A stretch of 60,142 nt of DNA from Candidatus Krumholzibacteriia bacterium (GCA_035687255.1 DASRYI010000344.1:1-60142), one strand, 5' to 3'. Positions 6,129-27,953 are shown, counted from the stretch's first letter. The notes: generated by a model from the letters alone, not told the origin. Numbers and translations: made by a program.

Positions 6129-6791
6129 TCAGTCGGCGTACTTGACGCCGCAGCCGTATGATACCGTGGACTTGGTGGCCACGGGCTTGCCCGCCATCGA
6201 TGCATCCAGACACGCCGATACGTAGTTGTCGGCAGTGGCAATGTCCCTGGGATCGGTCGACGGCTTGTTGTCGATCGCTCCGGCGTAGATCAACACGCCC
6301 TCCGGGTTGATCACGAACATGTCGGGCGTGGTCTTGGCCCCGTACTCGCGGCCCACAGTTCCGTCCGGGTCGCGCAGATACGCGGTGGACGCAACCTTTC
6401 TTTCCTTCGTCATCTCCTGCAGTGCGGCGGGGTCGTAGTAGCCCTGTTTGCCGGCCGCCGACGAACAGATGGTGAGCCACACCACGCCCTTCTCGGTGTA
6501 CTTCTTCTGCAACGCCTGCATGTTTCCCGAGCCGTAGTGCTTCTTCACGAACGGGCAATCCAGGTTGTTCCACTCCAGCACCACGTACTTGCCCTTGAAC
6601 GCGGAGAGCGCATACTCCTTCCCGTCGATTCCCGTCAGCTTGAAATCGGGCGCCGGCTTGTCGATGGCGGCGGTCATTGCGCTTTTGGTGTCGACGCTCG
6701 GGGAATCGGCGGCGGCGAGCGGCGCCAGCGCCAGCACGGCGGCCACCCCGAGTAAGCAGGGTGCGGATGTGCGCCAGTTCATGTGTTTCAT
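6129..6791 (-). CDS. Periplasmic thioredoxin-fold protein (redoxin / AhpC-TSA-like)
   Basis: Signal peptide ...LALAPLAAADS. Motifs APDFKLTGIDGKEYALSAFKGKYVVLEWNNLDCPFVKKHY and TTPDMFVINPEGVLIYAG are typical of the redoxin fold. Only one Cys sits in the CPFV motif. Confidence 0.7.
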   Translation of the reverse strand: MKHMNWRTSAPCLLGVAAVLALAPLAAADSPSVDTKSAMTAAIDKPAPDFKLTGIDGKEYALSAFKGKYVVLEWNNLDCPFVKKHYGSGNMQALQKKYTEKGVVWLTICSSAAGKQGYYDPAALQEMTKERKVASTAYLRDPDGTVGREYGAKTTPDMFVINPEGVLIYAGAIDNKPSTDPRDIATADNYVSACLDASMAGKPVATKSTVSYGCGVKYAD

Positions 6792-12178: not shown

Positions 12179-13387
12179 GTTGTGGGCGTAAGATTGTCCC
12201 TACGAGTGACAGAGAAGTCGGGGCAGTAGCAAAATCGTCATCCGCGTTCCTCTAGAATGCGTAGCGAAGGTGGTGTGTGCGGTTGACGGAAAGCGCCGCC
12301 GTGCGAACCTCCCGCCGGTAGTAGCCCTGCCAGCGCGGTGAGAGCTCGATCTTGTCGAAGAACAGGCGCTCCTTGAGCAGATCCCGAACTCGCCAGGGCC
12401 GCGTTGTCAGTCCCAGAATCATCGCCGGCGTGACGCGCGCGCCCTTTTCCCGGCGTTTCTTCATGTAATTTCTCCAGACCTGGAAGATGGCCAGCTTTTC
12501 GATGGAGGCTTGCCGGCGCTTCGCCCAGGCGATGGTCTCGCGCTTGTGGGCCGCGGTACTGTGGCGGATCATCAAGTCCAGAAGATTGACCTCCCAGAGC
12601 GGATTGCGCCGGTCACGCCGGCGCTTTGACGACGTGATGCGGTGCGTGACGCTGCGCTCTAAAGCGGCGATGGCACGAGGGTAGGCGCGGTGGTCATCGC
12701 TCCGAATAACTCGAGATGAAATGGGAGTGAGAAGATCTCGCATGCCGTCTTCGACCGCTCGCGAGGGAGCACACCCGAACGCCTCCTCAAGCTGGTATCG
12801 GCGGGCCTTTTGACTCGCTCGCATGCGTCCCTTGCGACGGAGTGGACTATCAGTGTGATAGAGAAAGTATCCCGAGTCCACGGCCACCGCCACATTGTGG
12901 TGGAACGGAAAGTACTGGCTCCATTCGAATGTCTCGAATCCATCGATGGCGATCTCGTTGATTACGGCAATGCGATGGAGCTCCCGGGCCTGAGTGAGCA
13001 GGCAGTGGCGCCCCAGACGGGCGACCTGGTGTGCCACCGTCTCTGGGCTGCAGCGCAGCGCACGGGAGATCTGGCGGTTGCCCATGCATCCGACCACCAT
13101 CATGACGATGCGCGGGATGAGGTCAGGGCGTTTTTGCCAGTATGACGTCGAGAAGGTCTGCGTACTGAAGTGACGGCGACATGCCAGACATGTAAACCGC
13201 TGGATACGAGTGGGTGCGGCCCGGCGCGTGTAGAAGCCCTTACGTTTGTAGGGCCACTCACGAGAAAACGCGGTGAAATAGCAGCAGTTCGGGTTGGGGC
13301 AATGTGGGGGCACCCATTCTACCTCTCTTGCTCCCATGTACCGGCCCAGGCACACAGCGTGCCAGGGCCAATTTCATGGCCACAACC
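12178..13387 (-). mobile_element. IS1-family insertion sequence (~1.21 kb, single-ORF type)
   Basis: Imperfect terminal inverted repeats: 12178-12201 GGTTGTGGGCGTAAGATTGTCCCT versus the reverse complement of 13364-13387 GGTTGTGGCCATGAAATTGGCCCT (19/24 identical). Both begin GGnnnTG as in IS1. They enclose one transposase ORF. No target-site duplication was seen. Confidence 0.6.
12252..13355 (-). CDS. IS1-family DDE transposase (zinc finger + HTH + DDE)
   Basis: N-terminal Cys clusters CPNPNCCYF...FTCLACRRHF. HTH NRQISRALRCSPETVAHQVARL. DDE-like blocks IAIDGFETF, IRSDDHRAYPRAI, LWEVNLLDLMIRHSTAAHKRETIAW, which parallel IS1 InsB EMDEQW / MTDGWPLY / IERHNLNLRQHL. An alternative start is ATG 13337. 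Confidence 0.7.
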   Translation of the reverse strand: MCLGRYMGAREVEWVPPHCPNPNCCYFTAFSREWPYKRKGFYTRRAAPTRIQRFTCLACRRHFSTQTFSTSYWQKRPDLIPRIVMMVVGCMGNRQISRALRCSPETVAHQVARLGRHCLLTQARELHRIAVINEIAIDGFETFEWSQYFPFHHNVAVAVDSGYFLYHTDSPLRRKGRMRASQKARRYQLEEAFGCAPSRAVEDGMRDLLTPISSRVIRSDDHRAYPRAIAALERSVTHRITSSKRRRDRRNPLWEVNLLDLMIRHSTAAHKRETIAWAKRRQASIEKLAIFQVWRNYMKKRREKGARVTPAMILGLTTRPWRVRDLLKERLFFDKIELSPRWQGYYRREVRTAALSVNRTHHLRYAF

Positions 13388-13424
13388 AAAAAAGAGGACG
13401 CGTTCGTAAGAACGCGTCCTCTTA
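13386..13424 (-). terminator. Rho-independent terminator of the minus-strand cytochrome operon
   Basis: Perfect 14-bp stem AAGAGGACGCGTTC/GAACGCGTCCTCTT with a GTAA loop. On the minus strand a run of six U follows (A-run 13388-13393, overlapping the base of the stem). It lies 32 nt after the stop at 13456. Confidence 0.7.
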
Positions 13425-13455
13425 TCCTGTCCCGTTCCAGATATCGAAGCGAGCA

Positions 13456-14040
13456 CTAGCCTCCGCTCTTGTACTTGGCTTTGCGCTCTTCCGGAATCGG
13501 ATGTGCGATGGCCGCTTTGGCCTTCGCGAAGTCAAACCCGGTGAATGTCGGGCTCTCTTTATTGTGACACTTCTCGCAGGTTGCCTGGTCGGGCATGTTC
13601 AGCCCCACCGACGCCTTCTCGATGGTTCCCGAGATGAGACCCTCCATGGTGGACTTCTTGATGTAGTCCGCGCCCGCGCCGTGACACGATTCGCAACCGA
13701 CACCGTCCTTGATGGAGTATTTCACTCCAACCATGCTGGTATCCACGCCGGCAGCGGTGACGTGGCACTTCAGGCAGTCCATTGACTTCTGCGGATCCGC
13801 AATGCCCTTGGCCTTGGCGATCTCCAGCGCCTTCGGGCTGGCCAGCGCCTCGTACGCCTTCGAGTGCTTGCTGGCCTGCCACTTCGGGTACTGCTCGCCC
13901 GCCGTCGCCGTCTTGTGGCAAACCGCGCACTTGGCTGTGCCTACAAACTTGTGCTCCGCCGCGCCCGCCACGACGCTGTACGCGAGCAAGCAGGCGCCCG
14001 CAATCAGCAGGGTGATGCTGGCGCCACCAGATCGTCTCAT
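13456..14040 (-). CDS. Periplasmic tetrahaem cytochrome c
   Basis: Signal peptide MRRSGGASITLLIAGACLLAYSVVAGAA. Four CxxCH (CAVCH, CLKCH, CESCH, CEKCH). AAGGAG RBS upstream. Confidence 0.85.
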   Translation of the reverse strand: MRRSGGASITLLIAGACLLAYSVVAGAAEHKFVGTAKCAVCHKTATAGEQYPKWQASKHSKAYEALASPKALEIAKAKGIADPQKSMDCLKCHVTAAGVDTSMVGVKYSIKDGVGCESCHGAGADYIKKSTMEGLISGTIEKASVGLNMPDQATCEKCHNKESPTFTGFDFAKAKAAIAHPIPEERKAKYKSGG

Positions 14041-14133
14041 GCCTGTCTCCTTTCAACCTGCGGCCCACACCGTCTTCAAAGCGACCATGTTAAGCCCCAA
14101 AGGGCGTTTTTCCAATACATTCCTGTATACAAC

Positions 14134-16266
14134 TCAAGGACTCTTTTTTCGCCCATCGTGTTTGCTTCCCGCGGGAGCCGCAGGCGTTTCCGTGGCAACG
14201 ATTTCCGCGTCTCCTTTTTCCGCATATTCCCCGGCGTGGAATTCCTGCCATTCGTGGACCGGCATACGGCCCGTGATCCATGTGGTGCTCATCGGATAGA
14301 CGACCGGGAGCACAATCACGAAGAAGAAGTGCCATATGAAGATCGCCGAAACCGCCAGAATCGCTTCATAGAAGTGGACGGTTTCGGAAACGCGCACAAT
14401 CCAGGCGGGGAAGAGGTGTGTCGCCACCGTGGGGAACCACAGGACCAGTCCCGTCAGGGCCATCACCCATGTGCCCCAGACCAGCGCCCAGTACTCGGCC
14501 TTCTGTGTGTAGTCAAAGGTCCGGAAGGCGGGGCGCGACCGCCGCCAGCCCACGTGATACGCCATGTTCTCGAACGCGTGGCGGACATCGTGCGCGCCGG
14601 GCGCCATCCCGCGCAGTGCGCTGCGCCCGCGGCGGGCCGCCAGCATCCAGATGCTGTGGTAGATGGCGGTGACGATCAGCAGTACGCCGAATGTGCGGTG
14701 CAGATTGGCGCGGACGCCCTCATGACCCCCCAGCCGTATCAATCGCACCCACCATGCCGTGGGGAAGCGGAGCGCAAAGCCGGTGATGGCCAGTCCCGCG
14801 AACGTGAGGAACAGAACCATGTGCTGCACGGTCTCGGCGCGGTACCAGCGCTGTATGTACGGTTCGCTGCGCACGTGCGCAAAGTGCCGCTTCATTTCGT
14901 AGCGCGCGATCAGCGCGTTGTGGAGTCCCATGCCGCCCAGCACGACGGCGATCAGCCACAGGTACAGCTTGCGTACCCACGCGCTGGGTCCACGCGGTTC
15001 GAGGGCGGCGGCGTGAGTGTAGCTCTGTGCAAACGTCGCGGTCGCATCGGGGTGACAGCGTTGGCAGGTATGCACGACGTTGGCCGGATTCACGGTGGAC
15101 AGCGAGTCCAGGGGACTGCGGATGTCGTGGACGGTGTGGCAGTCGGTGCAGTTGGCAACCAGATCGCTGCCGCGTGACATGGCCCATCCGTGGTAGCTGT
15201 CCAGGTAACTTTCCACCACACCCGGCATAATCCCGTATCTGGAGACCAGTTCGGGATTCGTGTGGCAGTCTCCACACAGTTCGCGCGCGCGATTCTCGGG
15301 GTTGATGGCTGCCGTCGGGTCCTGGGGTTTTTTGATGAGATGTTCGTTGTGGCAGTCGATGCACGTCGGTGCATCGTGAATACCGACGGCCACCGCCCGG
15401 CCGTGGATGGATGACTCGTACTCGGTGGCGATCTTCTCGTGGCAATGGCCGCAGGTGCTGGCCACGTTGGCCCGGTTGATGTGCGCCTTCGGATCGGACG
15501 GAAGACGCGAGTCGTGCGAGCCGTGACAGTCGGTGCACACAGCGGTCCGCTTGCCCTCTTTCCATCCCTCGCCGTGGACGGACGCCAGATAGGCGGGCAC
15601 CACCACCGGCAGGCGTACGAAATACTTCGTCAACGGCGCCTGTTTCTCATGGCACCCGCCGCACGTCTTCGGTACATTGCGCGGATTCACGGGTGAGGTG
15701 GTATCTGCCACCGCGACGATATGGTGGCTTCCGTGACACGTTCCACAGGTGGCGGCGCCGCCGTTCTGCCGGCGCCCGAGCCTGTGGACGCTGGTGGCGT
15801 ACTCCACCTCTTCCTTTTCGTGGCAGTTGCCGCAGGCGTACAGCGGTTCGGTGTGACCGTTTCCGCGCGGGTGAATGGTGTGGCAGGATGTGCACGACAT
15901 CTTGCCGCTCGCAAAGAGCGGATCGTGAACAGATCCCTTGAACGTCTCCCGGACGTCGTCGTGACATGATGTGCAGTCGACCTTTGTGTACTTCTTGAAA
16001 TGGGGGACGTCTTCGTAGTCGCCGGGCGCGGAATGGCAGTCGACGCAATCCAGGTCACCGTGCTGCCCGGCGTGAAACGTCTTCGCGACGATCCCGATCA
16101 GCCGGCCCTTGTCCGAGCGCATGCCGGCGTCGTCGTGACAGTCCAGACAGTCCTGAGTGGTGACCTGGGATAAAGCCGGGGTCGCCGCGCACAACGTGAG
16201 CGCAAGAACGGCGACCCCGATGAGGTCTCCGGGCACGGAGACACGCGAACCAGAGGGGTTTGCCAT
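14134..16266 (-). CDS. 13-haem cytochrome c fused to an FdnI/HydC-like b-type cytochrome membrane domain (paralogous architecture to 9368-12178)
   Basis: Signal peptide. I counted 13 CxxCH, from CLDCH to CQRCH. Hydrophobic helices follow, with His (GLHNAL, MVLFLTFAGLAITGF, NLHRTF, YHSIW, VHFYEAILAVSAIFIWHFF). Confidence 0.85.
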   Translation of the reverse strand: MANPSGSRVSVPGDLIGVAVLALTLCAATPALSQVTTQDCLDCHDDAGMRSDKGRLIGIVAKTFHAGQHGDLDCVDCHSAPGDYEDVPHFKKYTKVDCTSCHDDVRETFKGSVHDPLFASGKMSCTSCHTIHPRGNGHTEPLYACGNCHEKEEVEYATSVHRLGRRQNGGAATCGTCHGSHHIVAVADTTSPVNPRNVPKTCGGCHEKQAPLTKYFVRLPVVVPAYLASVHGEGWKEGKRTAVCTDCHGSHDSRLPSDPKAHINRANVASTCGHCHEKIATEYESSIHGRAVAVGIHDAPTCIDCHNEHLIKKPQDPTAAINPENRARELCGDCHTNPELVSRYGIMPGVVESYLDSYHGWAMSRGSDLVANCTDCHTVHDIRSPLDSLSTVNPANVVHTCQRCHPDATATFAQSYTHAAALEPRGPSAWVRKLYLWLIAVVLGGMGLHNALIARYEMKRHFAHVRSEPYIQRWYRAETVQHMVLFLTFAGLAITGFALRFPTAWWVRLIRLGGHEGVRANLHRTFGVLLIVTAIYHSIWMLAARRGRSALRGMAPGAHDVRHAFENMAYHVGWRRSRPAFRTFDYTQKAEYWALVWGTWVMALTGLVLWFPTVATHLFPAWIVRVSETVHFYEAILAVSAIFIWHFFFVIVLPVVYPMSTTWITGRMPVHEWQEFHAGEYAEKGDAEIVATETPAAPAGSKHDGRKKSP

Positions 16267-16291
16267 GGGGTTACTCCCGCGGCCAGTTCAG

Positions 16292-16320
16292 ATGCTATTC
16301 GCCCGGTGCGTGTCTGTCAA
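16292..16320 (-). promoter_or_regulatory. Candidate sigma-70-type promoter for the 13-haem/tetrahaem operon
   Basis: The minus strand reads TTGACA-N17-TAGCAT, about 25 nt upstream of ATG 16266, with a GGGAG RBS in between. The consensus used is E. coli-type and may not apply to this lineage. Confidence 0.3.
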
Positions 16321-16371
16321 CACCATGATACAGCGTATTTTCCAAGCAAATACTGGTACTGAAATTACCTG

Positions 16372-16401
16372 TCGACAAATGCACCAACGCTAAGGTAATC
16401 T
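16372..16401 (+). promoter_or_regulatory. Candidate sigma-70-type promoter for the Rieske/cytochrome b operon
   Basis: TCGACA-N18-TAATCT, ~28 nt upstream of ATG 16429 in an AT-richer divergent spacer. Flanked by the 7-bp inverted repeat ATTACCT/AGGTAAT. Confidence 0.3.
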
Positions 16402-16428
16402 ATTTCGGACAATTTGGTATCTAAAAAA

Positions 16429-16854
16429 ATGACCCGCAGAGATTTTACTAAACTCATACTTGCCGGCGGCGTGGTTGGCTGGCTGGGAAGCGTCATCTAC
16501 CCGGTTCTGTCGTACCTGCGGCCGCCGAAGGTCCCGGAGGCGAACGTTCAGTCCGTCAAGGCCGGGCAGGTGTCCGCGTTTCCGGTGAATACCGCGCAGA
16601 TCGTAAAGTTCGGACGCAAGCCGGTGATTCTGGTACGCAAGGCCGATGGTGACTTCAGCGCGCTGGCGGCCACGTGCACCCATCTCGGATGCATCGTTCA
16701 GTACCGCGGAGATCTCAAGGAGATCTGGTGCGCGTGTCACAACGGCCTGTACGACCTCAACGGTCGCAACGTCTCGGGCCCTCCGCCCAAGCCGCTCGAA
16801 CAGTACAAGGTCAACATTGTCGGCGACGACATTCTCGTCTCGAGGATGGCCTGA
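16429..16854 (+). CDS. Rieske [2Fe-2S] subunit of a cytochrome bc/b6f-type complex
   Basis: Tat-like MTRRDFTKLIL. Box I CTHLGC and box II CACHNG, 16 residues apart. Confidence 0.9.
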   Translation: MTRRDFTKLILAGGVVGWLGSVIYPVLSYLRPPKVPEANVQSVKAGQVSAFPVNTAQIVKFGRKPVILVRKADGDFSALAATCTHLGCIVQYRGDLKEIWCACHNGLYDLNGRNVSGPPPKPLEQYKVNIVGDDILVSRMA

Positions 16855-16857
16855 CGC

Positions 16858-17967
16858 ATGGCGCGCAGCGACGAAAGACAGTCGGCCATGACCGGTGACG
16901 CCCGCGACGGCGTTGTGCGGCGCTGCTACGGCTGGCTCGACGAGCGCTTTCACATTACGCCCCTGGTGAGCTTCATGCGGCACAAGCAGGTGCCGGTGCA
17001 TCGCAACACCATCTGGTACTACATGGGCGGTGTGTCGATGTTTCTCTTCCTGGTGCAGATTGCATCGGGAATTCTGCTGATTCTCTATTACAAGCCGGAC
17101 GAGGCGAATGCGTTCGAAAGTGTTCGCTTCATCACCACCCGGGTGTCCTTTGGCTGGCTGGTGCGATCCGTGCACAGCTGGTCCGCGAACATGATGGTGT
17201 TCTTCGTGTTCGTACACATGTTCAGCGTGTTTTTCACGCGCGCCTTCAAGAAGCCGCGCGAGCTGACGTGGGTAACCGGATTCGTGCTGCTGTGCCTGGC
17301 GCTCGGATTTGGATTCACGGGTTATCTCCTGCCGTGGAATGAGCTGGCTTTCTTCGCCACCAAGGTGGGAACCGACATCGCGGGCGCGGTGCCGCTGCTG
17401 GGCCATCCCATCAAGGTATTGCTGCGCGGTGGTGACGACGTTACCGGGGCCACGCTGACGCGGTTCTACGCCATTCACATTGCCATCCTGCCGGCAATAT
17501 TTGCGGCGCTGCTGGGCGTGCACCTGCTGTTCGTCCAGCGTCAGGGAATGCACGAGCCGGAGTCGATGCACGGAATGGATGCCTCACGCCGGAAGACGAT
17601 TCCGTTCTTTCCCAATTTTCTGCTGCGCGACACGCTGCTGTGGTTGATCGTTCTCAACATTCTGCTCGCGCTCGCCGTTTTCTTTCCCTGGGAACTGGGG
17701 CAGAAGGCCGATCCATTTGCGTCGGCGCCCTCGGGCATTCGGCCCGAATGGTATTTCATGTTCATGTTCCAGACCCTCAAGCTGCTGCCCGCGCACGTGT
17801 GGTTCATGGAGGGTGAAGTGCTGGGCATCATGGGATTCGGGCTTCTGGGTCTGGCGTGGCTGCTGATTCCGTTCTGGGAGTTGCGCCGCGTGCGCCTGAT
17901 GATGGCAATCGGCGTCGGAGCCATCGTGTACATGGTCGCGATGACAGTCTGGGGTTACCTGGTATGA
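16858..17967 (+). CDS. Cytochrome b (b6-like N-terminal part fused to subunit-IV-like part)
   Basis: Helix B His pair is H-x13-H ([18 protein letters not shown]). Helix D is H-x14-H ([22 protein letters not shown]). PEWY Qo motif is present ([11 protein letters not shown]). Motif [19 protein letters not shown]. Confidence 0.9.
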
Positions 17968-19295
17968 AGACGCCCGTTCGTTTCATTCTTGCCGGCCTGG
18001 GTATCGGGCTCGTGTGCATGTTCACGGTCACAGCGGGGCCGGGCGGTGGCGTGGCGAACGCGGACGAGCACGAAGAGAAACACGGGACCGAGGCGGCCGA
18101 AAACGCCGCGGGTACGGATACGGCGCAGGCGGTGGACAATTGTGTCGTATGCCACCGCGAGAACGACAACCTCCCCGACCACTTTATGGCGGCCGACGTA
18201 CACATGCAGTCGGGGATTTCGTGCTCCGGATGCCACGGAGGCGATCCCACCAGCGACGACGAGGACGTCGCCATGTCCAAGGCGAAGGGTTTCCGCGGGG
18301 TGCCGTCCAAGGAGCAGATTCCCGACTTTTGCGGCCGCTGTCACTCGGACATCAACTTCATGCGCAAGTACCGCCCGGGCATCGCCACCGACCAGGAGAC
18401 GCAGTACTGGACGTCGGTTCACGGCCAGAAGCTGCGCGCGCATGACAAGAAGGTGGCGGACTGCACCAGCTGCCACACGGCCCACTCGATATTTCCCGCA
18501 TCGGACACGCGCTCTTCGGTGAATGCGCTCAACGTGCCGTCCACGTGCGGGCGATGCCACGGCGACGCGACCTACATGGCCGGCTACGGCATTCCCACCG
18601 ACCAGCTGGAGAAGTTCAAGAAGAGCGTGCATGGAATCGCGCTGCTGCAGAATCAGGATACGGGCGCGCCCGCCTGCAACGACTGTCACGGTAACCATGG
18701 CGCGATGCCGCCGGGCGTGAATTCCATCGCCCAGATCTGCGGACAGTGCCACGTGAACAACATGAACTACTTCACGGAGTCGCGCATGGGTCACGCGTGG
18801 GTCGAACAGGGATTTCATGCCTGCGAGGAATGCCACGGCAACCACGGGGTGGCGAAGACCTCTGACACCATGATTGGCACGACGGACGGTGCCGTATGCC
18901 TCGACTGCCACGAGCAGGGCGACAAGGGATTCGAGACGGCGGGGAAGATACGCGCCAGCCTGGATTCCCTCTCCACGGCCTACGATGCGGCCGTTGCCAA
19001 ACAGAAGGTTGTCCAGCGTATCGGCATGGATGATGTGGATATCGGCTTCATGCTGCAGGAAGCCAACCAGAGCCTGGTTCAGTCACGCACGCTGGTGCAC
19101 ACGTTCGATGCACCGAAGGTCGCTGCCCGTACCGACGAGGGCATGGTGAAAGCCCAGGAAGCCAGCGTGATGGCCGACCATCAGGTGAAGGAATATCACG
19201 TGCGCCGCCGTGGATTCGGGATGGCCACGCTGTTCACAACCATCCTCGCGATCGCCCTCTTCTTCCGTATCCGCCAGATGGAATCACGGCCGTAG
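17964..19295 (+). CDS. Nonahaem cytochrome c with C-terminal membrane anchor, third gene of the Rieske/b operon
   Basis: ATG 17964 overlaps the cyt b stop (ATGA). Signal [20 protein letters not shown]. Nine CxxCH (CVVCH...CLDCH). C-terminal helix [15 protein letters not shown]. Confidence 0.85.
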
Positions 19296-20060: not shown

Positions 20061-21341
20061 TCAGGTGTTCGTGCTCTGCATTCCGCGGGCGACTTCGGGA
20101 ATGATGCCTTTCTGTTCGTAGATCGGTCGCACCAGGCGGCGGATGACCGGCAGCCGGCGGATGAAGAACAGGGTGGCGAGTATGCAGGCACAGCCGCCGC
20201 CCAGGACGGTGTAGGGAGCACCGACGCGTGCGGCCACTGCGCCCGCGAGCAGACTTCCAAGCGGCGCCACGCCCAGTATCGCTGCCGCGTAGAAACTCAT
20301 GATGCGGCCGCGTTTGTCGTCGTGGACGATGGTCTGCAGGATGGTGTTGGCGGACGCGTTCTGCGCCATCATCCCGAATCCCACCACGAACAGCGCCGCC
20401 AGCGCCGGCACCAGCGAGCGGCAGAACGCAAACGCCATCAGCGCGGCGCCGAAAAGCAGGCCCGAGATGGCAATCACCCTTCCCAGGCCGCGAACGCTCC
20501 GGCGGGACGCGAGATACACCGCGCCGGCCAGCGCCCCCAGTCCCGACGCGCTGGCGAGGAACCCGTAGGTGTGCGCGCCGCCGTGCAGTACCTCGCGCGC
20601 GATCACCGGCAACAACACGGCGTACGGCAATCCCAACAGGCTGGCGGTGGCGACCAGCACCAGCAGGCCGCGGATCGGTTCGAAGCCCATTGCGTAGCTG
20701 AATCCCTCTCGAATTCCGCTCCACAGCGGCGCGTGCTGCGTGCGCCGCGGCAGCGGTGAAATGTGCATGGCCAGCAGGCTCACAATCACGGCGATATAGC
20801 TCACGCCATCGATGGCAAAGCACACGCCCTCACTCGCTGCGGCAATCAGTAGCCCCGCGACCATCGGTCCCACCAGGCGCGCGGAATTGAACATCATGGA
20901 GTTGATGGCGATGGCGTTGGGGAGATCGGCCGGCCCTTCCACCATCTGCACCGCGAAGGCCTGGCGCGCGGGCGTGTCGAAGGCGTTCACAATTCCCTGC
21001 AGCGTGTTCAGCACGATCAACTGTGGAACCGTGATCACTTTGGTCAGGGTGAGCGCCGCCAGCACGAACGACTGGACCATGGAGAGCACCTGCGTCACCA
21101 CCAGCACCCGGCGCAGGTTCCAGCGGTCGGCCAGCACGCCCCCCAGCGGAGAGAAGATCAGATTGGGCACCTGTCCCGCAAAATTCACGACACCCAGCAG
21201 CAGCGCTGACCCGGTCAGGCGGTACACCAGCCAGCTGGTGGCGACCCGGGTGATCCACGTGCCGATGAGCGATAACCCCTGTCCATAAAAGAACAAACGG
21301 TAGTTGCGGTGGGAGAGGGCACGCAGGAGCGGTAGGGCCAT
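20061..21341 (-). CDS. MFS transporter (EntS/MFS_3-like)
   Basis: Start at MALPLLRALSHRNYRLFFYGQGLSLIGTWI (ATG 21341). About 12 hydrophobic helices. The 102-codon upstream extension of the listed ORF is non-membrane and overlaps the divergent STAS gene. Confidence 0.8.
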   Translation of the reverse strand: MALPLLRALSHRNYRLFFYGQGLSLIGTWITRVATSWLVYRLTGSALLLGVVNFAGQVPNLIFSPLGGVLADRWNLRRVLVVTQVLSMVQSFVLAALTLTKVITVPQLIVLNTLQGIVNAFDTPARQAFAVQMVEGPADLPNAIAINSMMFNSARLVGPMVAGLLIAAASEGVCFAIDGVSYIAVIVSLLAMHISPLPRRTQHAPLWSGIREGFSYAMGFEPIRGLLVLVATASLLGLPYAVLLPVIAREVLHGGAHTYGFLASASGLGALAGAVYLASRRSVRGLGRVIAISGLLFGAALMAFAFCRSLVPALAALFVVGFGMMAQNASANTILQTIVHDDKRGRIMSFYAAAILGVAPLGSLLAGAVAARVGAPYTVLGGGCACILATLFFIRRLPVIRRLVRPIYEQKGIIPEVARGMQSTNT

Positions 21342-21450
21342 GGGCCCCAGTATCGAAAAGGTTCCAGCGTTTGCGCAAGCACGACCGCGTGCAACTTTTC
21401 GGGTGGTTTGTCCGTCTACTTTCCCAACGGCAGGCGAAAGGACGGGAGTC

Positions 21451-21840
21451 ATGATCACGGTAGACAGAAGCACGATCGGCGATGTGCACGTGCTCACACC
21501 CAGAAAGAACCTGGTGGGCGGCGACGAAACCCGGGTGCTCTCCGCAGCAGTCCAGGAACTCACCGGAAACTCGTCGGTGAAGGTGGTGCTGGACCTGGGC
21601 AGAATCAACTGGGTCAGCAGTCTCGGCATTGAGGAGCTGCGGCGCATTCATCGCATCTGTGCCAATCATCAGGGCTGGATGCGGCTGGCGTGTGTGGGTG
21701 AGCGCATCGAGAACATCATTCTGACGATGAGACTGGACTGGGTGTTCGATACGTTCGACACGGTGGAAGAGGCGGCGCTGGCGCCGGCGCGTGGTATGGA
21801 AGATGCGCCCCACGCCTGGAGGTTCGGGTCGGCTGTGTAG
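21451..21840 (+). CDS. STAS-domain protein (anti-sigma-factor antagonist-like)
   Basis: MITVDRSTIGDVHVLTPRKNLVGGDE...VVLDLGRINWVSSLGIEELRRI...ENIILTMRLDWVFDTFDTVEEA fits the SpoIIAA/STAS pattern. AAAGGACGGGAG precedes the ATG. Confidence 0.7.
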   Translation: MITVDRSTIGDVHVLTPRKNLVGGDETRVLSAAVQELTGNSSVKVVLDLGRINWVSSLGIEELRRIHRICANHQGWMRLACVGERIENIILTMRLDWVFDTFDTVEEAALAPARGMEDAPHAWRFGSAV

Positions 21841-22006: not shown

Positions 22007-22522
22007 ATGCCGTTACCATTCTCCGGTCCCGTGCGATATTTCGCGTGGGGCTTTGTTGTATCCCTCGCCGTCGCAGTTTCCGTCGCGGCGAAATCTGAAG
22101 ATCCTTCCCAGACTCTCGACCCGATTGCGGCCGTCGCGGACACGTCGCTGGCACTCTCCGGCAAGGTGGTCTATGTGGACTTCTGGGCGTCGTGGTGCGG
22201 GCCCTGCCGCCAGTCGCTGCCGTGGCTCAACGGGCTGCTCCAGCGCTACGGCGACCGGGGATTCCGCCTGGTCACCGTGGATGTGGACCGCAAACCCGCC
22301 GCCGGACGGAAATTCCTCAAGGACCTCGGTGTATCATTTCCCGTCGTGTTCGATTCCACGGGCACGTTCGCGAAGAAGTATCAACTCCAGGCCATGCCCA
22401 CCTCCTTCATCTACGGGCGTGACGGTAAGCTGCGTGAACGCCGGGAGGGCTTCCACGAAGGCGAGGCGTACGGCGTGGAAGACCAGATCGAAGACCTTCT
22501 GCAGCAGAAGGGAGTGAAATGA
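22007..22522 (+). CDS. TlpA-family periplasmic thiol-disulfide oxidoreductase
   Basis: Signal anchor. Motifs VVYVDFWASWCGPCRQSLPWL (WCGPC) and YQLQAMPTSFIYGRDGKL. Confidence 0.85.
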   Translation: MPLPFSGPVRYFAWGFVVSLAVAVSVAAKSEDPSQTLDPIAAVADTSLALSGKVVYVDFWASWCGPCRQSLPWLNGLLQRYGDRGFRLVTVDVDRKPAAGRKFLKDLGVSFPVVFDSTGTFAKKYQLQAMPTSFIYGRDGKLRERREGFHEGEAYGVEDQIEDLLQQKGVK

Positions 22523-22752
22523 AACTGTTCGTACGGATCTGTCTGCTGGTCATGACGGCGCTGGCCGCGCTATGGTCGGCGGGATGCGCATCGGTGGGCG
22601 TCGACGTGTGGGAACGCGACGTGCTGGCGCGTGCCGAGATGCAGCCGGATCACCGCGCCATCGATCGCGCGCTGGATGACCACATCTACTTCAGCAAGGA
22701 AGCCTCGAGCGGCGGCCGCGGCTTCGGTGGTGGTGGCTGCGGGTGCAACTGA
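22519..22752 (+). CDS. DUF4266-family small lipoprotein
   Basis: ATGA overlap with tlpA-like gene. Lipobox LWSAGC. Motifs VWERDVLA...M and the C-terminal GGGCGCN tail are characteristic of DUF4266. Confidence 0.75.
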   Translation: MKLFVRICLLVMTALAALWSAGCASVGVDVWERDVLARAEMQPDHRAIDRALDDHIYFSKEASSGGRGFGGGGCGCN

Positions 22753-24050
22753 ACCGCCCGGAGCACGTTCGCACGGCGCTGACCGCATTTACGGCCGCAC
22801 TGCTCGGAACCCATACCGCCATGGCCGGCGACGCCGGCAAGGTGGATTCCTCGCTGCTCATCTATTCGGAGACCAACCGCGTCAAACTGGCGGAGGGCGT
22901 GGTTGACCTCAACAAGCAGATGGATGAGCAGAAGTCCTACGCACTCCACCTGGTGTTCGATGCACTCACCGGCGCCTCGCCCAACGGCGCCACGCCGTCG
23001 AGCCACGTTCAGACCTTCACCGGCGCATCCGGCCACGCCGGCTACTCCACGCCGGCGGGCGAGATCCCACTCGACAGCTCCTTCTCGGACCGGCGCTTTG
23101 CCGTCGACGGATCGATTTCCGACCAGATCAGCCGGCTGACGATGGGAAGCGTGGGCGGACACCTCTCGTGGGAGCGCGACTACGCGTCGCTGGGAATCAA
23201 CGGATCCATCAGCCGCGACTTCAACCGCAAGAACACGACCATCGGCATGTCGGCCGCTTACAACCACGACACCGTGTCGCCGATTGGCGGCGCACCCACG
23301 CCGCTGGCGTCGATGCCCGCCGCGTCGGTTTCGGTGGGTGAGGGAGAGGGCGAAGGCGAGGGTGGAGGTGGTGGGGGTGGCGGGCCCGGCAAAGGAAAGG
23401 ATATCGGCGATGTGGTGGTGAGCCTGAGCCAGGTGCTTACCCGCTACACGCTGGTGCAGATGAACTACTCCGTCGACCGCGAGTCCGGCTACCTGAACGA
23501 CCCGTACAAGCTGCTGAGTGTCGTGCAGGACGAGGGCTCCGCGGCGCCCGGAGAACCGGTCGATTATCTGTATGAATCACGCCCCGGTTCGCGCACCAAG
23601 CAGGCGTTGTACGCGGAGCTGCGCCAGTACATCGCCGGCACCGCAACCGACGTCTCCTACCGGTACTTCTGGGATGACTGGGGAATTCGCTCGCACGCCG
23701 TGGATCTGATCGAGCACATTCCGCTTCCGCGCGGGAATTCGCTCGAACCGCACGTGCGCTGGTACAGCCAGACACAGGCGGACTTCTTCCGCACCTATCT
23801 GGTCGAGGGCCACCAGATTCCGCAGTACGCATCGGCGGACGCGCGCCTGACGGCGTTCGATGCGTGGACCTACGGGTTGCGTTACTCGCTGCCGGTGGGC
23901 GAGGGCAACGAACTTGGCTTCAGTGCGGAATACTACGAACAGACCGGCACGCGGGCGCCGCCCAACCCTCCCGGAATCCTGAAGCAGTATGACCTCTTTC
24001 CCGCGTTGACCGTGTTCATGCTGCGAATCGGATTCACGCATGCCCTCTAG
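22743..24050 (+). CDS. DUF3570-family protein (predicted beta-rich envelope protein)
   Basis: GTG start overlaps the DUF4266 stop. Signal-like ALTAFTAALLGTHTAMA. Motifs SSLLIYSETNRV, HLVFDALTGASPNGA and RYFWDDWGIRSH fit the family pattern. It is in the canonical DUF4266/DUF3570/ApbE/thioredoxin neighbourhood. Confidence 0.7.
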   Translation: MQLNRPEHVRTALTAFTAALLGTHTAMAGDAGKVDSSLLIYSETNRVKLAEGVVDLNKQMDEQKSYALHLVFDALTGASPNGATPSSHVQTFTGASGHAGYSTPAGEIPLDSSFSDRRFAVDGSISDQISRLTMGSVGGHLSWERDYASLGINGSISRDFNRKNTTIGMSAAYNHDTVSPIGGAPTPLASMPAASVSVGEGEGEGEGGGGGGGGPGKGKDIGDVVVSLSQVLTRYTLVQMNYSVDRESGYLNDPYKLLSVVQDEGSAAPGEPVDYLYESRPGSRTKQALYAELRQYIAGTATDVSYRYFWDDWGIRSHAVDLIEHIPLPRGNSLEPHVRWYSQTQADFFRTYLVEGHQIPQYASADARLTAFDAWTYGLRYSLPVGEGNELGFSAEYYEQTGTRAPPNPPGILKQYDLFPALTVFMLRIGFTHAL

Positions 24051-24936
24051 TTCCACCGCGCCGTTCACCATCGGGACGCGGGGCGGGCACGTCGTCGCGA
24101 CCTATTCGGCGATGGCGAGTCCGTGCGAAATTCTGATTCGAACCGCGGACGCGGGCGAAGCCCGCAGGCTGGCTTCGCTCGCGCACCGCGAAACTCTCCG
24201 CATCGAGCACAAATTCAGCCGCTACCGCGACGATGGCGTGGTGCACACCATCAATCACAGCAACGGCGGGCCCGTCGCCGTCGACGACGAGACCTCGCGC
24301 CTGCTGCGCTACGCCGGACAATGTTTTGAACTGAGCGAGGGACGCTTCGATATCACGTCAGGGGTGTTGCGGCGCGCGTGGACCTTCGACGGCCGCGAGA
24401 CCACACCTGACCGTGCGTTGATCGAGTCGCTGCGCGCCAACGTGGGCTGGGACCGTGTCGAGTTTGACGGCGCGAGTATCCGGCTGCCGCGCGGCATGGA
24501 GATCGACCTCGGGGGAATCGGCAAGGAATACGCGGCCGACCGCGTCGCCGACTTGCTCACCGCCGAAGCTGGTCACGGTGTCATGGTGAACCTGGGCGGC
24601 GACATTCGCGTCACTGCGGATGGGGAACACCGCTGGACCATCGGCATCGAGGACCCCGCGCGCGACCGCTCGGCACTGGGCCAGCTGGATCTGGCCGCCG
24701 GCGGTGTGGCGAGCAGCGGTGACGCGCGCCGCTTCTGCATCGTGAACGGGGTCCGCCTGGGACACATCCTCGACCCACGCACGGGCTGGCCGGTGGCGGA
24801 CGCGCCGCGCAGCGTCACGGTTGTGGCCGACACCTGCACGGCCGCCGGATTCCTCTCCACGCTGGCCATGCTGCATGGAACAGACGCCGAAGCGTTTCTC
24901 GCTGCTCAGGACGTCGTCCACCACTGCGTGCGCTGA
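24040..24936 (+). CDS. apbE: FAD:protein FMN transferase (flavinyl transferase)
   Basis: Motifs AMASPCEILI, FSRYRDDGVVHTIN, RFDITSGVL, EIDLGGIGKEYAADRV, VNLGGDIRV, GVASSGDARRF, HILDPRTGWP. No obvious signal peptide or lipobox. Confidence 0.85.
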   Translation: MPSSSTAPFTIGTRGGHVVATYSAMASPCEILIRTADAGEARRLASLAHRETLRIEHKFSRYRDDGVVHTINHSNGGPVAVDDETSRLLRYAGQCFELSEGRFDITSGVLRRAWTFDGRETTPDRALIESLRANVGWDRVEFDGASIRLPRGMEIDLGGIGKEYAADRVADLLTAEAGHGVMVNLGGDIRVTADGEHRWTIGIEDPARDRSALGQLDLAAGGVASSGDARRFCIVNGVRLGHILDPRTGWPVADAPRSVTVVADTCTAAGFLSTLAMLHGTDAEAFLAAQDVVHHCVR

Positions 24937-24970: not shown

Positions 24971-25870
24971 CTACACGCCGGGACTCCCGCCCGCCGGCTC
25001 GTCGATCAGTTCCTTTTCCGTCACCAGGTCGTGTGACAGGTCCTCATCGGGCGTGATGTTCTTCATGCGCACCGAGAGCGAAACGATTGCCACCGCCAGG
25101 CCGAACAGACACACGATGGTGGCGCCCATGGGCCAGTCCTTGAGGTAGGAAAACACCCCACCCAGAACCGACACCACCAGCGCGATGGCCCACGCCCAGA
25201 ACAATCGCGAGCGTCCCTTGAAGCCCAGCAGCGTTGCGCACACCAGCGGAACAATCAGAAACGAGAACACCGCCAGCACGCCTGATACCTTGACCGAGCT
25301 GGTCACCACGAGTCCGAACGACGCGTAGAACAGAAAGTCCCAGAGTTTCACGGACAGCCCCATCTGCCGGGCCTTCTTGGGATGTTCGGAACAGAGCATG
25401 AGCTTCTCACGTTGCAGGAACAGGAAGATGCCCACCGGGATGAACAGCGCGATCATGACGACGAGATCCTTCCACGTCACCCAGCCCAGTGCTTCACCGC
25501 TGAGTGCGCCGCGCACGTGCTCGGCTCCGTGCGGTGCGTTCGACAGGAGCAGCAGTGTCGCCGCGGTTGCCAGTGCGAAGGAGATACCGATGAACGCCTC
25601 CTGCAGCACCGAATGATCGCGATCCCAGAGAAAGCTGAAGAGTGCGGCTCCTGCCAGCGTGAATCCGAACGACCAGTAGTACACGCTGGGGTCGTGCGGC
25701 TCCGCGCCCAGCAGGAAGGCGACACTCTGGCCGAGCGCGGCGATCTGGGCGAGTGCGAGGTCCACGAAGATCACCCCGCGGGCCAGCACGTGCTGGCCCA
25801 GCGTGGGGAGCATGAGCAGTAAGAGCGTGCATGCCAGAATCGGCATGGCCATAACGGTTACAAAGTTCAT
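24971..25870 (-). CDS. ABC-3 family metal (Zn/Mn/Fe) transporter permease
   Basis: About 8 helices. Motifs GVIFVDLALAQIAALG and SVKVSGVLAVFSFLIVP are typical of ZnuB/TroC-type permeases. Confidence 0.85.
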   Translation of the reverse strand: MNFVTVMAMPILACTLLLLMLPTLGQHVLARGVIFVDLALAQIAALGQSVAFLLGAEPHDPSVYYWSFGFTLAGAALFSFLWDRDHSVLQEAFIGISFALATAATLLLLSNAPHGAEHVRGALSGEALGWVTWKDLVVMIALFIPVGIFLFLQREKLMLCSEHPKKARQMGLSVKLWDFLFYASFGLVVTSSVKVSGVLAVFSFLIVPLVCATLLGFKGRSRLFWAWAIALVVSVLGGVFSYLKDWPMGATIVCLFGLAVAIVSLSVRMKNITPDEDLSHDLVTEKELIDEPAGGSPGV

Positions 25871-25881
25871 TGCGGTCTACC

Positions 25882-26793
25882 TCACTTCGAAAGCGCTTGA
25901 GCCAGCGACGAGATCATGAAGTCGAATTTGGAAAAGACGTCTTTGGCCTCGGGAACTCCGCCCACTTCCGTCGGCAGTTCCAGAGCCGTTGCGCCCGCCT
26001 TGCTCGCCACTTTGTTGCTGGCGTCGGCGTCGTAGTACGGCTGGTACACCACCACTTTGCAGTTGGCCTGCTTCATGGCGTCGGCCAGCTCCGCGATGTG
26101 CCGGGGACTGGGCGGGATTCCTGGCTTGGGCTCGACATGTTCAAACTCTTTGAAGCCGAAGCGCGTGAGAAAATAGATGAAGTTCTTGTGATAGGTAACG
26201 ATGGGCGCGCCCTTGAACGGTTCCATCTGCTTCAGCCACCCGGCGAGCGAGGTTTCCATGCGCTCGTCGAAGGCTTTGGCGTTGGCGGCGTAGTCGGCCG
26301 CGTTCGCCGGGTCCAGCTTCGAGAACACATCGGCCAGGTGATCGGCCACCACTTCCAGGTTCTTGGGGTCGCAGTAGTAGTGCGGATTGCCCAGCGGATG
26401 GATGTCGCCCTCCGCGCGGCTCACGGTGCCGGTGGGCTTTTCCAGCACGGGAACGCCCTCGGAGGCGTCGACGAACCCCGGCTGTCCCGGCTGGATCTTC
26501 GGGTTGCGGCTTCCCGGCAACACCAGCGGCAACCAGCCGCTGTCGAGTTCCAGTCCCACCGAAATGAATACATCGGCCTGCTGGATGACTTTCATCAGAC
26601 TGGGTTTTGCGGGCACGAAGTGCGGGTCCTCGTAGCCCTTGCACAGACTCTCGGCCTTGACGTGTTTCCCGCCCACGAACTGGGCGACCGACGCCAGATC
26701 CGAAAGGGATGTGGCGACCTTCAGATCGGCGAAGGCGGGCGTGGCCATCAGCCCGACCATCAGGACAGCGATACAACGAATCAACGATCGCAT
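25882..26793 (-). CDS. Metal ABC transporter substrate-binding protein (ZnuA/TroA family)
   Basis: GGAGG RBS before ATG 26793. Signal MRSLIRCIAVLMVGLMATPAFA. Motifs EDPHFVPAKPS, GDIHPLGNPHYYCDP, VTYHKNFIYF, PKPGIPPSPRHIAEL. The listed 447-aa ORF is an upstream over-extension. Confidence 0.85.
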   Translation of the reverse strand: MRSLIRCIAVLMVGLMATPAFADLKVATSLSDLASVAQFVGGKHVKAESLCKGYEDPHFVPAKPSLMKVIQQADVFISVGLELDSGWLPLVLPGSRNPKIQPGQPGFVDASEGVPVLEKPTGTVSRAEGDIHPLGNPHYYCDPKNLEVVADHLADVFSKLDPANAADYAANAKAFDERMETSLAGWLKQMEPFKGAPIVTYHKNFIYFLTRFGFKEFEHVEPKPGIPPSPRHIAELADAMKQANCKVVVYQPYYDADASNKVASKAGATALELPTEVGGVPEAKDVFSKFDFMISSLAQALSK

Positions 26794-26855
26794 GGGATCC
26801 TCCATGAAGTGATGCCTGGTGTGTTTTGTTTTCATTTTCGTCACCGGTGTGCGCA

Positions 26856-27953
26856 TCAGTACGCGTGCGCGGGGTGATAGCCGATGGTGTAGCTGGCCTG
26901 CGCCATGATGCGCTGGTCGTGCGGCTTGAAGCCGTTGCCGTCGTCGGCCTGCGCATAGCTGTACTCGAGGCGGATGTACGAGAATTCCGTCGGCGCCCAC
27001 TTGATGTTGGCCGACGCGCGCTTCACGTTGCCGGCGATGGGGTCGCCGGTGGCCGGGTCGACCAGGACGTCGGTGTAGCTGTCGAGCGCCTTTTCGACCT
27101 GCACACCGGTCCACCACACCTGCGAGAGCCGGTACTGAAACGACGCAAAGCCGCCGTGAGCCTGCCGGTGGTAGGTGCCGCCCACCGATGAATTTCTCTC
27201 CAGGTATTCGCCCGACAGAATCCACCCGCGCTGGTTCGACCGTCGCAGGGGAACGTTGCGAAACGTGAGGTCCGCTCCGATGGCGCCGTGGCGGTGGCCG
27301 TCGGCGCCCCGTCCCTGCAATCCCGACACACCGAATTCCATGGTGGTGCTCTCGTTCAGGTCGAACTGGTTTTTCAGGTGGCCGCCGTAGGGAATGTTGT
27401 TGTGGTTGTTGGAACCGAAATCGAGCGGGTTCTCGTCCGTCGCGTCGACGGCCTTGTAGACACCGCCGGTGAGCTCCATGTACCAGGGAACCGGTGTCAG
27501 CCAGGCAGCCTCCAGGCCCGAGTCCTTGAATCCCTCTTCACCGATGGTGTTGGCCATGATGACAGGCGCCTGGATGAACGGGTACGCGTGCGTGTGCAGC
27601 ATCCCCTGTTTTCCAAACATTCCCCGGATCTTTCCGAGTTTCAGCGAGATGTTGGGAATGCTGTTGGTGCGGACCCACACCTCCTCGGGGTCCACCTCGC
27701 CCGTTCCTGCGAAGACGATGTTCGATACCAGCGTCCAGGTCGGGTCGACCACGGAGATCAGGCTCATCTCCGCGTCATCGAAATTGATTCCGTAGGGCTG
27801 GTTCAGATTCGGCGCCGCCTGCGCCGAGACCAGGGCGTTGAGCCCGATCGACGGGTTGGCCAGATTGGAGAACATGGAGCGTGTTTGCGCCGGCGACAGC
27901 GCCGGAATGCACGCAAGGGAAACAAAAACAGCAATGAGTACGCGTGGTTTCAT
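26856..27953 (-). CDS. Putative outer-membrane beta-barrel (porin-like) protein of the metal-uptake operon
   Basis: Signal MKPRVLIAVFVSLACIPALSPAQT. Alternating beta-strand pattern. C-terminal ...ASYTIGYHPAHAY ends in an aromatic residue. Confidence 0.55.
   Translation of the reverse strand: MKPRVLIAVFVSLACIPALSPAQTRSMFSNLANPSIGLNALVSAQAAPNLNQPYGINFDDAEMSLISVVDPTWTLVSNIVFAGTGEVDPEEVWVRTNSIPNISLKLGKIRGMFGKQGMLHTHAYPFIQAPVIMANTIGEEGFKDSGLEAAWLTPVPWYMELTGGVYKAVDATDENPLDFGSNNHNNIPYGGHLKNQFDLNESTTMEFGVSGLQGRGADGHRHGAIGADLTFRNVPLRRSNQRGWILSGEYLERNSSVGGTYHRQAHGGFASFQYRLSQVWWTGVQVEKALDSYTDVLVDPATGDPIAGNVKRASANIKWAPTEFSYIRLEYSYAQADDGNGFKPHDQRIMAQASYTIGYHPAHAY

Follow-up and report, generated by a model that had tools for sequence, protein, structure and literature searches.

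We analysed a cluster of four genes at positions 22007-24936 of a 60,142-nucleotide (nt) stretch of DNA from a Candidatus Krumholzibacteriia bacterium (GCA_035687255.1 DASRYI010000344.1:1-60142), and this whole stretch is called the window below. The cluster encodes a TlpA-like protein, a DUF4266 protein, a DUF3570 protein and an ApbE. All four open reading frames (ORFs) are on the + strand and overlap one another, by 4 nt (ATGA) between the TlpA-like gene and DUF4266, by 10 nt between DUF4266 and DUF3570, and by 11 nt between DUF3570 and ApbE. Their third-position GC content is 0.76-0.82, and the Pfam matches of all four proteins are far above the gathering scores. The four genes are one operon, and the tight packing, the ATGA overlap and the GTG start are as described in an earlier reading of this DNA by a model (the sequence-only reading). 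The genes are as follows (aa, amino acids):

22007-22522, + strand: TlpA-like protein, 171 aa
22519-22752, + strand: DUF4266 protein, 77 aa; its ATG overlaps the stop codon of the TlpA-like gene (ATGA)
22743-24050, + strand: DUF3570 protein, 435 aa, GTG start
24040-24936, + strand: ApbE, 298 aa; its ATG lies within the 3' end of the DUF3570 gene

The DUF3570 protein matches PF12094 with an E-value of 3.4e-116 (389 bits vs a cut-off of 25) over profile positions 3-425 of 427. In substrates of ApbE, flavin mononucleotide (FMN) is phosphoester-linked to the last Ser/Thr of a sequon, and two such sequons are found in this protein:

22959-22979, + strand: sequon 1, D73-A-L-T-G-A-S79; FMN is predicted to be phosphoester-linked to Ser79, which lies at the outer end of strand beta3
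23010-23030, + strand: sequon 2, Q90-T-F-T-G-A-S96; a second FMN is predicted on Ser96, within the beta3-beta4 loop

The first of them had been placed exactly, at residues 73-79, by the sequence-only reading, while the second had been overlooked. In an alignment of 135 full-length DUF3570 representatives (one per 50%-identity cluster), sequon 1 is near-invariant, as that reading had proposed to check: D73 is kept in 135, [TS]76 in 131, G77 in 135, A78 in 118 and [ST]79 in 134, and a conserved P-N-G-A follows it across the family alignment. At site 2, S96 is found in 132 of 135 representatives and G97 in 130, and the family consensus is Q-T-F-T-x-[P/A]-S-G, with T-S-P-S and T-R-P-S as common forms. 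Strict TGAS at site 2 occurs in only 5 of 135 representatives, which are close relatives of the window protein. Among the predicted window proteins, about 16,800 aa in total, the only instance of the pattern Dxx[ST]GA[ST] is the one in DUF3570. Since sequon 1 is near-invariant in the family and unique among the window proteins, it is more than a chance match, and a chance motif was ruled out on these grounds. The DUF3570 protein contains no cysteine, so thiol-flavin chemistry, if any, must be intermolecular.

Such clusters have been described before. Méheust, Huang, Rivera-Lugo, Banfield & Light 2021 (eLife 10:e66878, PMC8238504) found "orphan" apbE genes beside DUF3570, and noted two conserved [S/T]GA[S/T] motifs in DUF3570. 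When they expressed the Chlorobium luteolum (C. luteolum) DUF3570 (ABB24424.1) together with its cognate ApbE (ABB24423.1) in E. coli, an ultraviolet (UV)-fluorescent band appeared. Ser-to-Ala substitution at both motifs was needed to lose the fluorescence, pointing to two modified sites; the constructs had no signal peptides, and flavin was attached in the cytoplasm of E. coli (PMC8238504). In the same work, clusters of ApbE, DUF3570, a thioredoxin-like protein and DUF4266 were counted 227 times with DsbD and 316 times without it, VIT1 was seen in 25 clusters, and the authors proposed a hybrid thioredoxin-like/flavinylation system that in some bacteria receives its electrons from DsbD (PMC8238504).

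The window cluster is a member of this published module in its DsbD-unlinked form; we group it with the 316 DsbD-less clusters because a scan of the larger window ORFs gave no DsbD_TM. That DUF3570 is an ApbE flavinylation substrate, as the sequence-only reading had supposed, agrees with the flavinylation of the C. luteolum homologue (PMC8238504) and with conservation, synteny and structure. The same reading had taken the neighbourhood to be recurrent but without assigned function, and the module to be an uncharacterised flavin/thiol-based envelope redox system. The recurrence holds (at least 62 of 81 loci, see below) and so does the module reading, as in PMC8238504, but the modification was published in 2021 and the physiological role alone is unassigned, so the system is already known and the claim of novelty fails. 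A 2023 preprint about C-terminal sorting signals also briefly mentions this neighbourhood. Full-text searches of later literature (mSystems 2024, JBC review 2025) returned no further treatment of DUF3570, and the text of the eLife 2021 supplementary tables contains neither per-gene SignalP calls nor C. luteolum accessions.

An AlphaFold2 (AF2) model of DUF3570, built from 83 homologues, has a predicted local distance difference test (pLDDT) of 85.1 and a predicted template modelling score (pTM) of 0.81, and consists of 16 long antiparallel strands. Disorder is confined to residues 1-29 and 196-213. In residues 1-29 the pLDDT is below 50, and a helix is modelled at 10-20, ahead of the first barrel strand. 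These regions contain two further features:

22743-22826, + strand: predicted Sec signal peptide, DUF3570 residues 1-28 (...T-A-M-A/G-D), from the model and N-terminal hydropathy
23328-23381, + strand: disordered low-complexity loop, residues 196-213 (GEGEGEGEGGGGGGGGPG), between beta7 and beta8, pLDDT < 50

The beta7-beta8 insert reads GEGEGEGE-GGGGGGGG-PG (GEGEGEGE-G8), and a similar acidic/Gly-rich stretch is seen in the consensus of the homologue alignment.

An N-terminal hydrophobic stretch is present in 115 of 127 DUF3570 representatives. Export of a folded or cofactor-loaded DUF3570 by twin-arginine translocation (Tat) was considered and rejected, as a twin-arginine motif appears neither in the window protein nor in the alignment consensus. 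Using Foldseek against PDB, the top-50 matches listed are almost all outer-membrane beta-barrels (OccK1/OpdK, OmpG, FadL, PfeA, BtuB), with probability 1.0, E ≈ 1e-10 and template modelling (TM) scores up to 0.43, which together make the fold class clear and indicate that a close solved relative is absent. Of the 135 representatives, 113 end in F, W, Y or L (Leu in the window protein), as expected for the beta-signal of an outer-membrane protein (OMP). When expressed without signal peptide in E. coli, the C. luteolum DUF3570 went to the insoluble fraction (PMC8238504). From the above, DUF3570 is predicted to be a Sec-exported, 16-stranded outer-membrane beta-barrel.

In this model, a long and well-ordered connection (pLDDT 83-93) lies between strand 3 (64-77) and strand 4 (115-128) and carries both candidate serines, S79 just past the end of strand 3 and S96 after a mini-strand at 90-93. 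Burial of the motif in a strand had been named by the sequence-only reading as a result that would speak against flavinylation; the model places the serines at strand-loop junctions instead. Known OMPs have both termini in the periplasm. If this holds for DUF3570, the beta3-beta4 connection is extracellular loop 2, and S79 and S96 are predicted by standard OMP topology to be on the extracellular or lumenal side; loop 2 may also fold back into the barrel lumen.

The adjacent ApbE matches PF02424 at 7.6e-67, and its sequence matches in PDB are to ApbE/Ftp/FmnB (1vrm, 6nxi, 4xdt etc.), the best being TM1553 (E 3e-39). Its AF2 model has a pLDDT of 93 and a pTM of 0.90, with disorder at residues 1-5 only and residues 10-33 forming strands of the fold. 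By Foldseek, the model can be superposed over its full length on crystallised mature constructs of secreted ApbE/Ftp/FmnB, with TM scores of 0.81-0.83 (0.83 to 1vrm and 4xdt), and the catalytic segments IDLGGIGKEY, ASSGD and HILDPRTG align with those of the solved enzymes. Judged by sequence and modelled fold, it is a bona fide flavin adenine dinucleotide (FAD):protein FMN transferase. Its score against the E. coli-type ApbE equivalog NF007774 is 86 bits vs a cut-off of 498, and it is thus a family member of a distinct clade.

The sequence-only reading had remarked that this ApbE has no visible signal peptide or lipobox, which is confirmed and turns out to be general to the clade. Using hydropathy heuristics and the model, we found no signal peptide, lipobox, twin-arginine motif or transmembrane segment in the window ApbE, and its N-terminal 12-residue hydropathy maximum is 1.08, vs 2.6-2.75 for the TlpA-like and DUF4266 proteins. 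A hydrophobic N-terminus is found in 0 of its 120 closest homologues (57-100% identity, mostly about 300 aa, range 276-362), and no leader is seen on ApbE in about 68 syntenic loci examined. In these loci, usually 16-46 hydrophilic residues precede a conserved "AMASPCE" strand, and the few ORFs with longer apparent extensions are likewise non-hydrophobic. A miscalled start had been raised as an alternative by the sequence-only reading. A miscall that hides a signal peptide was ruled out by an in-frame TGA at 24007, 33 nt upstream of the ApbE ATG and with no start codon in between, and by the equally short homologues.

The clade has further marks of its own. "AMASPCE" replaces the usual "MGT" first-strand motif in the DUF3570-linked ApbEs, and five cysteines are conserved (C29 and C233 in 120 of 120 homologues; C95, C266 and C296 in 113-116 of 120), which may form a metal or redox site or may be a mere mark of cytoplasmic location. 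This clade is found essentially together with DUF3570. One 717-aa protein (P0370) was considered as a true DUF3570-ApbE fusion and rejected: the last barrel strands are lost at the junction, and it is probably a frameshift artefact across the overlapping genes. By its sequence and model, the window ApbE is a cytoplasmic-type ApbE dedicated to what is predicted to be a Sec-exported outer-membrane protein.

The other two proteins of the operon carry thiol motifs:

22193-22207, + strand: redox-active motif W63-C-G-P-C67 of the TlpA-like protein, from sequence
22729-22749, + strand: C-terminal tail G71-G-G-C-G-C-N77 (CXC dithiol) of DUF4266, from sequence

The TlpA-like protein matches Pfam Redoxin (E 2.7e-18) as well as AhpC-TSA and Thioredoxin_8. 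Its best NCBIfam matches are ResA, StoA, DsbE and TlpA, all short of the equivalog cut-offs (ResA 88 bits vs 170; TlpA 56 vs 230; DsbE 63 vs 123). With an N-terminal hydrophobic signal or anchor at residues ~11-28 (12-aa hydropathy maximum 2.62), it is classed as a TlpA/ResA-like thiol:disulfide oxidoreductase and predicted to be an anchored periplasmic thioredoxin fold. WCxPC is kept in nearly all TlpA homologues of the syntenic loci, and the WCGPC thioredoxin noted earlier as the first gene (motif at residues 63-67) indeed stands first in at least 62 of 81 loci.

DUF4266 (PF14086, E 1.2e-20) begins with a signal peptide or hydrophobic stretch followed by L-W-S-A-G-C23, and a lipobox-like motif is present in 67 of 80 homologues. 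It is probably a lipoprotein; the Ser at -3 makes its lipobox slightly non-canonical, so that lipidation is probable rather than certain. At 79 of 80 loci DUF4266 ends in GGGCGCN, so the ending pointed out in the sequence-only reading stands, but as a CXC pair and not as the Cys-rich tail it was called. Méheust et al. 2021 noted this conserved CXC and suggested that it may redox-cycle (PMC8238504).

To assess the spread of the system, DUF3570 was scanned with HMMER over 1.84 billion cluster representatives, which returned 1,811 relatives at E ≤ 0.001 and 883 at E ≤ 1e-10. Synteny was summarised for the best 80 of 571 confirmed DUF3570 loci (one genome per GTDB species), or 81 loci including the window. 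The order TlpA>DUF4266>DUF3570>ApbE on one strand is found in at least 62 of these 81. It is conserved in Latescibacteria, Zixibacteria, Ignavibacteria, Gemmatimonadota, Eisenbacteria, Elusimicrobiota and many Gammaproteobacteria, the last including Colwellia, Moritella, Glaciecola, Marinomonas, Cellvibrio, Woeseiaceae and Steroidobacteraceae; Colwellia, Moritella, Marinomonas and Glaciecola are among the culturable carriers. Clustering of all flanking ORFs gave no universally linked fifth gene. The flanking genes counted were response-regulator/GGDEF genes (23 loci), full-length DsbD (about 6), Cupredoxin_1 (6) and a CusA/AcrB-type pump (7).

About 10 loci (L014, L017-L020, L022, L023, L029, L030, L044) contain a DUF4266>DUF3570 pair without adjacent TlpA or ApbE and with the sequon intact. 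Several of them are second copies in genomes that also have a full cassette (L029 with L002, L019 with L010, L020 with L013), and in 8 loci a protein of about 240 aa without Pfam match lies upstream. As the sequon is kept in these pairs, an ApbE acting in trans is possible. In some Alteromonadales loci (among L040, L041, L053, L057, L060, L064, L070, L073 and L079), the cassette is flanked by Cupredoxin_1, an unannotated protein of about 243 aa and a CusA/AcrB-type pump, genes which hint at a copper link in that lineage.

Taken together, the operon is very probably an ApbE/DUF3570 hybrid thioredoxin-like/flavinylation module of the DsbD-unlinked form, and for it we propose a barrel, a thiol relay and cytoplasmic attachment of FMN. 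In the proposed relay, electrons from cytoplasmic thioredoxin would cross the inner membrane by a DsbD/CcdA-type protein encoded elsewhere, which would reduce the CxxC of the periplasmic TlpA-like protein. The TlpA-like protein would pass them to the Gly-rich C-terminal CGC tail of the DUF4266 lipoprotein, the tail to FMN on S79/S96 of the DUF3570 barrel, and the barrel FMNs to an acceptor at or beyond the outer membrane. For this acceptor, our best guess would be a metal ion because of the gene context, which is ZnuA/ZnuB here and VIT1, cupredoxin and CusA elsewhere.

As for maturation, the DUF3570 precursor would receive its FMN in the cytoplasm while still unfolded, ahead of Sec export and insertion by the beta-barrel assembly machinery (BAM). 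A leaderless ApbE beside an exported substrate implies either cytoplasmic attachment before Sec export or export of ApbE by another route, and the conservation of the leaderless form makes cytoplasmic, pre-export attachment the probable one. The C. luteolum experiment, with leaderless constructs and a largely insoluble substrate (PMC8238504), indicates that the enzyme works in the cytoplasm and that a folded barrel is unnecessary. Cytoplasmic attachment would in turn require SecYEG to pass a Ser-phospho-FMN side chain. The complete reading, in which DUF3570 is a flavin-lined, haem-free outer-membrane electron conduit fed by the thiol relay, its two covalent FMNs on the beta3-beta4 loop being inside the lumen or close to it, with a cytoplasmic ApbE flavinylating its precursor, is a possibility that we put forward tentatively.

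Several points weigh against the explanation proposed here as a whole. The direction of electron flow and the terminal acceptor are inferred, and the electron source is only assumed, because a scan of the larger ORFs of the 60-kb window turned up no DsbD_TM/CcdA gene. The gene context is inconsistent, with ZnuA/ZnuB here, cupredoxin/CusA in some Alteromonadales and VIT1 in 25 published clusters. Whether S79 and S96 face the lumen, the surface or the periplasm is deduced from strand order only. Site 2 is non-canonical as an ApbE sequon in most family members (T-x-P-S-G), and the leaderless-ApbE survey was confined to loci with a DUF3570 that shares at least ~36% identity with the window protein. 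We know of no precedent for export of an FMN-bearing polypeptide through SecYEG. Covalent FMN has been seen experimentally for the C. luteolum homologue only (PMC8238504), and according to a 2025 review (PMC12052999) canonical ApbE acts outside the cytoplasm, while cytoplasmic ApbEs are listed for cytoplasmic targets only.

In one rival, flavinylation is periplasmic: the leaderless ApbE would be exported non-classically, by an unrecognised signal or piggy-back, and would modify chaperone-bound, unfolded DUF3570 in the way that canonical lipoprotein ApbEs modify NqrC/RnfG. In its favour, the signal-peptide-bearing ApbE substrates characterised so far are modified outside the cytoplasm, the FMN adduct would not have to make the unprecedented passage through SecYEG, and the function of Salmonella ApbE required a periplasmic location (PMC12052999). 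This rival is nevertheless unlikely, as export signals or membrane segments are missing from the window ApbE, the 120 homologues and the ~68 syntenic ApbEs alike, and residues 10-33, where a leader might be sought, are confidently modelled as strands of the globular fold. Moreover, the full 298 aa align with the mature crystal constructs of secreted ApbEs, and five conserved cysteines, an odd number, better suit a reducing compartment.

A second rival keeps the module and changes its task. Instead of exporting electrons, the system would be an envelope sulfhydryl oxidase or a sensor-type device, in which TlpA and DUF4266 lose thiol electrons to the barrel flavins and the final sink is O2 or some other oxidant. 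It would serve to form or isomerise disulfides, or to handle a thiophilic metal such as Cu(I) via the CGC tail. Erv2p, a yeast thiol oxidase, has a flexible C-terminal Cys-Gly-Cys arm that shuttles electrons to its flavin and provides an analogy, and CXC peptides have potentials like those of protein disulfide isomerase (PDI). Cupredoxin_1 and CusA/AcrB-type genes beside the cassette in 6-7 Alteromonadales loci, and the lack of a linked DsbD in most loci, also fit an oxidative role. On the other hand, the commonest identifiable membrane partner is DsbD, which is reductive (227 clusters in PMC8238504; about 6 loci here), TlpA/ResA-type proteins are typically reductants, and the window gives no pointer to copper, which makes such a role improbable here.

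That the adjacent ApbE serves some cytoplasmic protein, with DUF3570 flavinylated by another, secreted ApbE or not at all here, is very unlikely: cytoplasmic ApbEs with cytoplasmic substrates do exist, e.g. in K. pneumoniae (PMC12052999), the two proteins are predicted in different compartments, and the sequon-bearing pairs of about 10 loci have no adjacent ApbE, but the two genes overlap by 11 nt, at least 62 of 81 loci, from several phyla, share the order DUF3570>ApbE, the clade is essentially confined to the company of DUF3570, the adjacent ApbE flavinylated its DUF3570 in C. luteolum (PMC8238504), and Dxx[ST]GA[ST] occurs in no other window protein.

The surroundings of the operon were also summarised. 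Between 21000 and 25500, no Rfam match (FMN riboswitch or other RNA) was found at E ≤ 1, and a scan for sigma-70 promoters and terminators around the operon gave nothing exceeding shuffle expectation, the sole terminator-like hit being inside the TlpA-like gene. Directly downstream and convergent with ApbE, 24971-27953 (- strand) encodes a ZnuB-like ABC-3 permease, a ZnuA-type binding protein and an OmpL-like beta-barrel porin, and no ABC ATPase gene was seen beside the ZnuA/ZnuB-type genes. Upstream, within 20061-21840, there are an MFS_3 transporter (- strand) and a STAS-domain ORF (+ strand). The latter (21304-21840) ends 166 nt before the TlpA-like start and is overlapped by the MFS_3 ORF, which has an N-terminal extension of about 100 aa that is probably spurious.

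Beyond the MFS_3 and STAS ORFs, multihaem cytochrome c genes are densely packed in 7885-19295. Found in this region are a NapC/NirT-like gene (7885-9396), a c554-like protein (13456-14040), a Rieske protein (16414-16854), MtrC/MtrF-like domain matches, and two multihaem c proteins with a cytochrome b561/Ni_hydr_CYTB-type membrane domain (9275-12178, 967 aa; 14134-16266, 710 aa). These genes suggest an extracellular or periplasmic electron-transfer locus. About 15 kb upstream of the operon, a 300-aa secreted protein with the DsbD N-terminal domain alone (PF11412; 6829-7731, - strand) is adjoined by an AhpC/TSA-Redoxin protein (6129-6791, - strand). Very large secreted proteins are encoded at 1275-5990 (-) and 51291-54650 (+); one is a C25 (gingipain-like) peptidase with FG-GAP repeats and a FlgD_ig domain, and the other is an FG-GAP protein with Por_Secre_tail, the C-terminal sorting domain of the type IX secretion system (T9SS).

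In summary, the window adds a member from a Candidatus Krumholzibacteria metagenome-assembled genome (MAG) to a catalogued cluster type, and two of its features are undiscussed in the DUF3570 literature that we found, namely an outer-membrane barrel as the predicted flavin carrier and a conserved leaderless ApbE beside an exported substrate. Together they raise a concrete and testable question, namely in which compartment and by what means an outer-membrane protein acquires its covalent flavin, and whether bacteria possess a haem-free electron route across the outer membrane. If the conduit and maturation reading is true, SecYEG would here be passing a phosphoester-linked flavin for the first time, and no earlier cytoplasmic ApbE would be known to act on an exported substrate. 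The family is widespread and includes culturable carriers, and is worth attention.

Compared with known systems, the likeness to Erv2p is functional: a flexible, Gly-rich C-terminal CGC tail would communicate with a flavin. The fold and compartment are unrelated, the flavin of Erv2p is a non-covalent FAD, and the putative arm here is on a separate lipoprotein. MtrAB-type porin-cytochrome conduits are likewise a functional analogy, as outer-membrane beta-barrels that house redox cofactors and through which electrons may pass. They are non-homologous to DUF3570, in which covalent FMNs would sit on the barrel's own loop, in place of haems on an inserted cytochrome, and its conduit role is suggested by analogy.

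The DsbD -> TlpA/ResA/CcmG pathways share an anchored thioredoxin-fold WCxPC protein with the cassette, and a full DsbD adjoins it in some genomes. They differ in that no DsbD_TM was found among the window ORFs scanned, the TlpA-like protein falls under the ResA/TlpA/DsbE cut-offs, and its partners here are a CGC lipoprotein and a putative flavoprotein, not apocytochrome c or Sco/CoxB. The cytoplasmic ApbE of Klebsiella pneumoniae, which acts in fumarate reductase maturation, also has no signal peptide; its substrate is cytoplasmic, whereas the linked substrate here has a predicted signal peptide and OMP fold. The FMN_bind substrates NqrC/RnfG/NosR/PplA share with DUF3570 the sequon Dxx(S/T)GA(S/T) and the family of the transferase, but they are small soluble or membrane-anchored FMN_bind domains modified by a secreted or lipoprotein ApbE, while DUF3570 is predicted to be a 16-stranded outer-membrane barrel without an FMN_bind domain and its ApbE has no leader.

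The clusters of Méheust et al. are the same in their four Pfam families, in the two Ser sequons in the N-terminal part of DUF3570 and in the C-terminal CXC of DUF4266. The thioredoxin-like gene here is best matched by Redoxin/AhpC-TSA, whereas PF13899 is listed in that paper; the DUF3570/ApbE literature found discusses neither the predicted barrel fold in the outer membrane nor the lack of a leader on ApbE; and the host here is a Candidatus Krumholzibacteria MAG, with a strict TGAS at site 2 vs mostly T-x-P-S-G.

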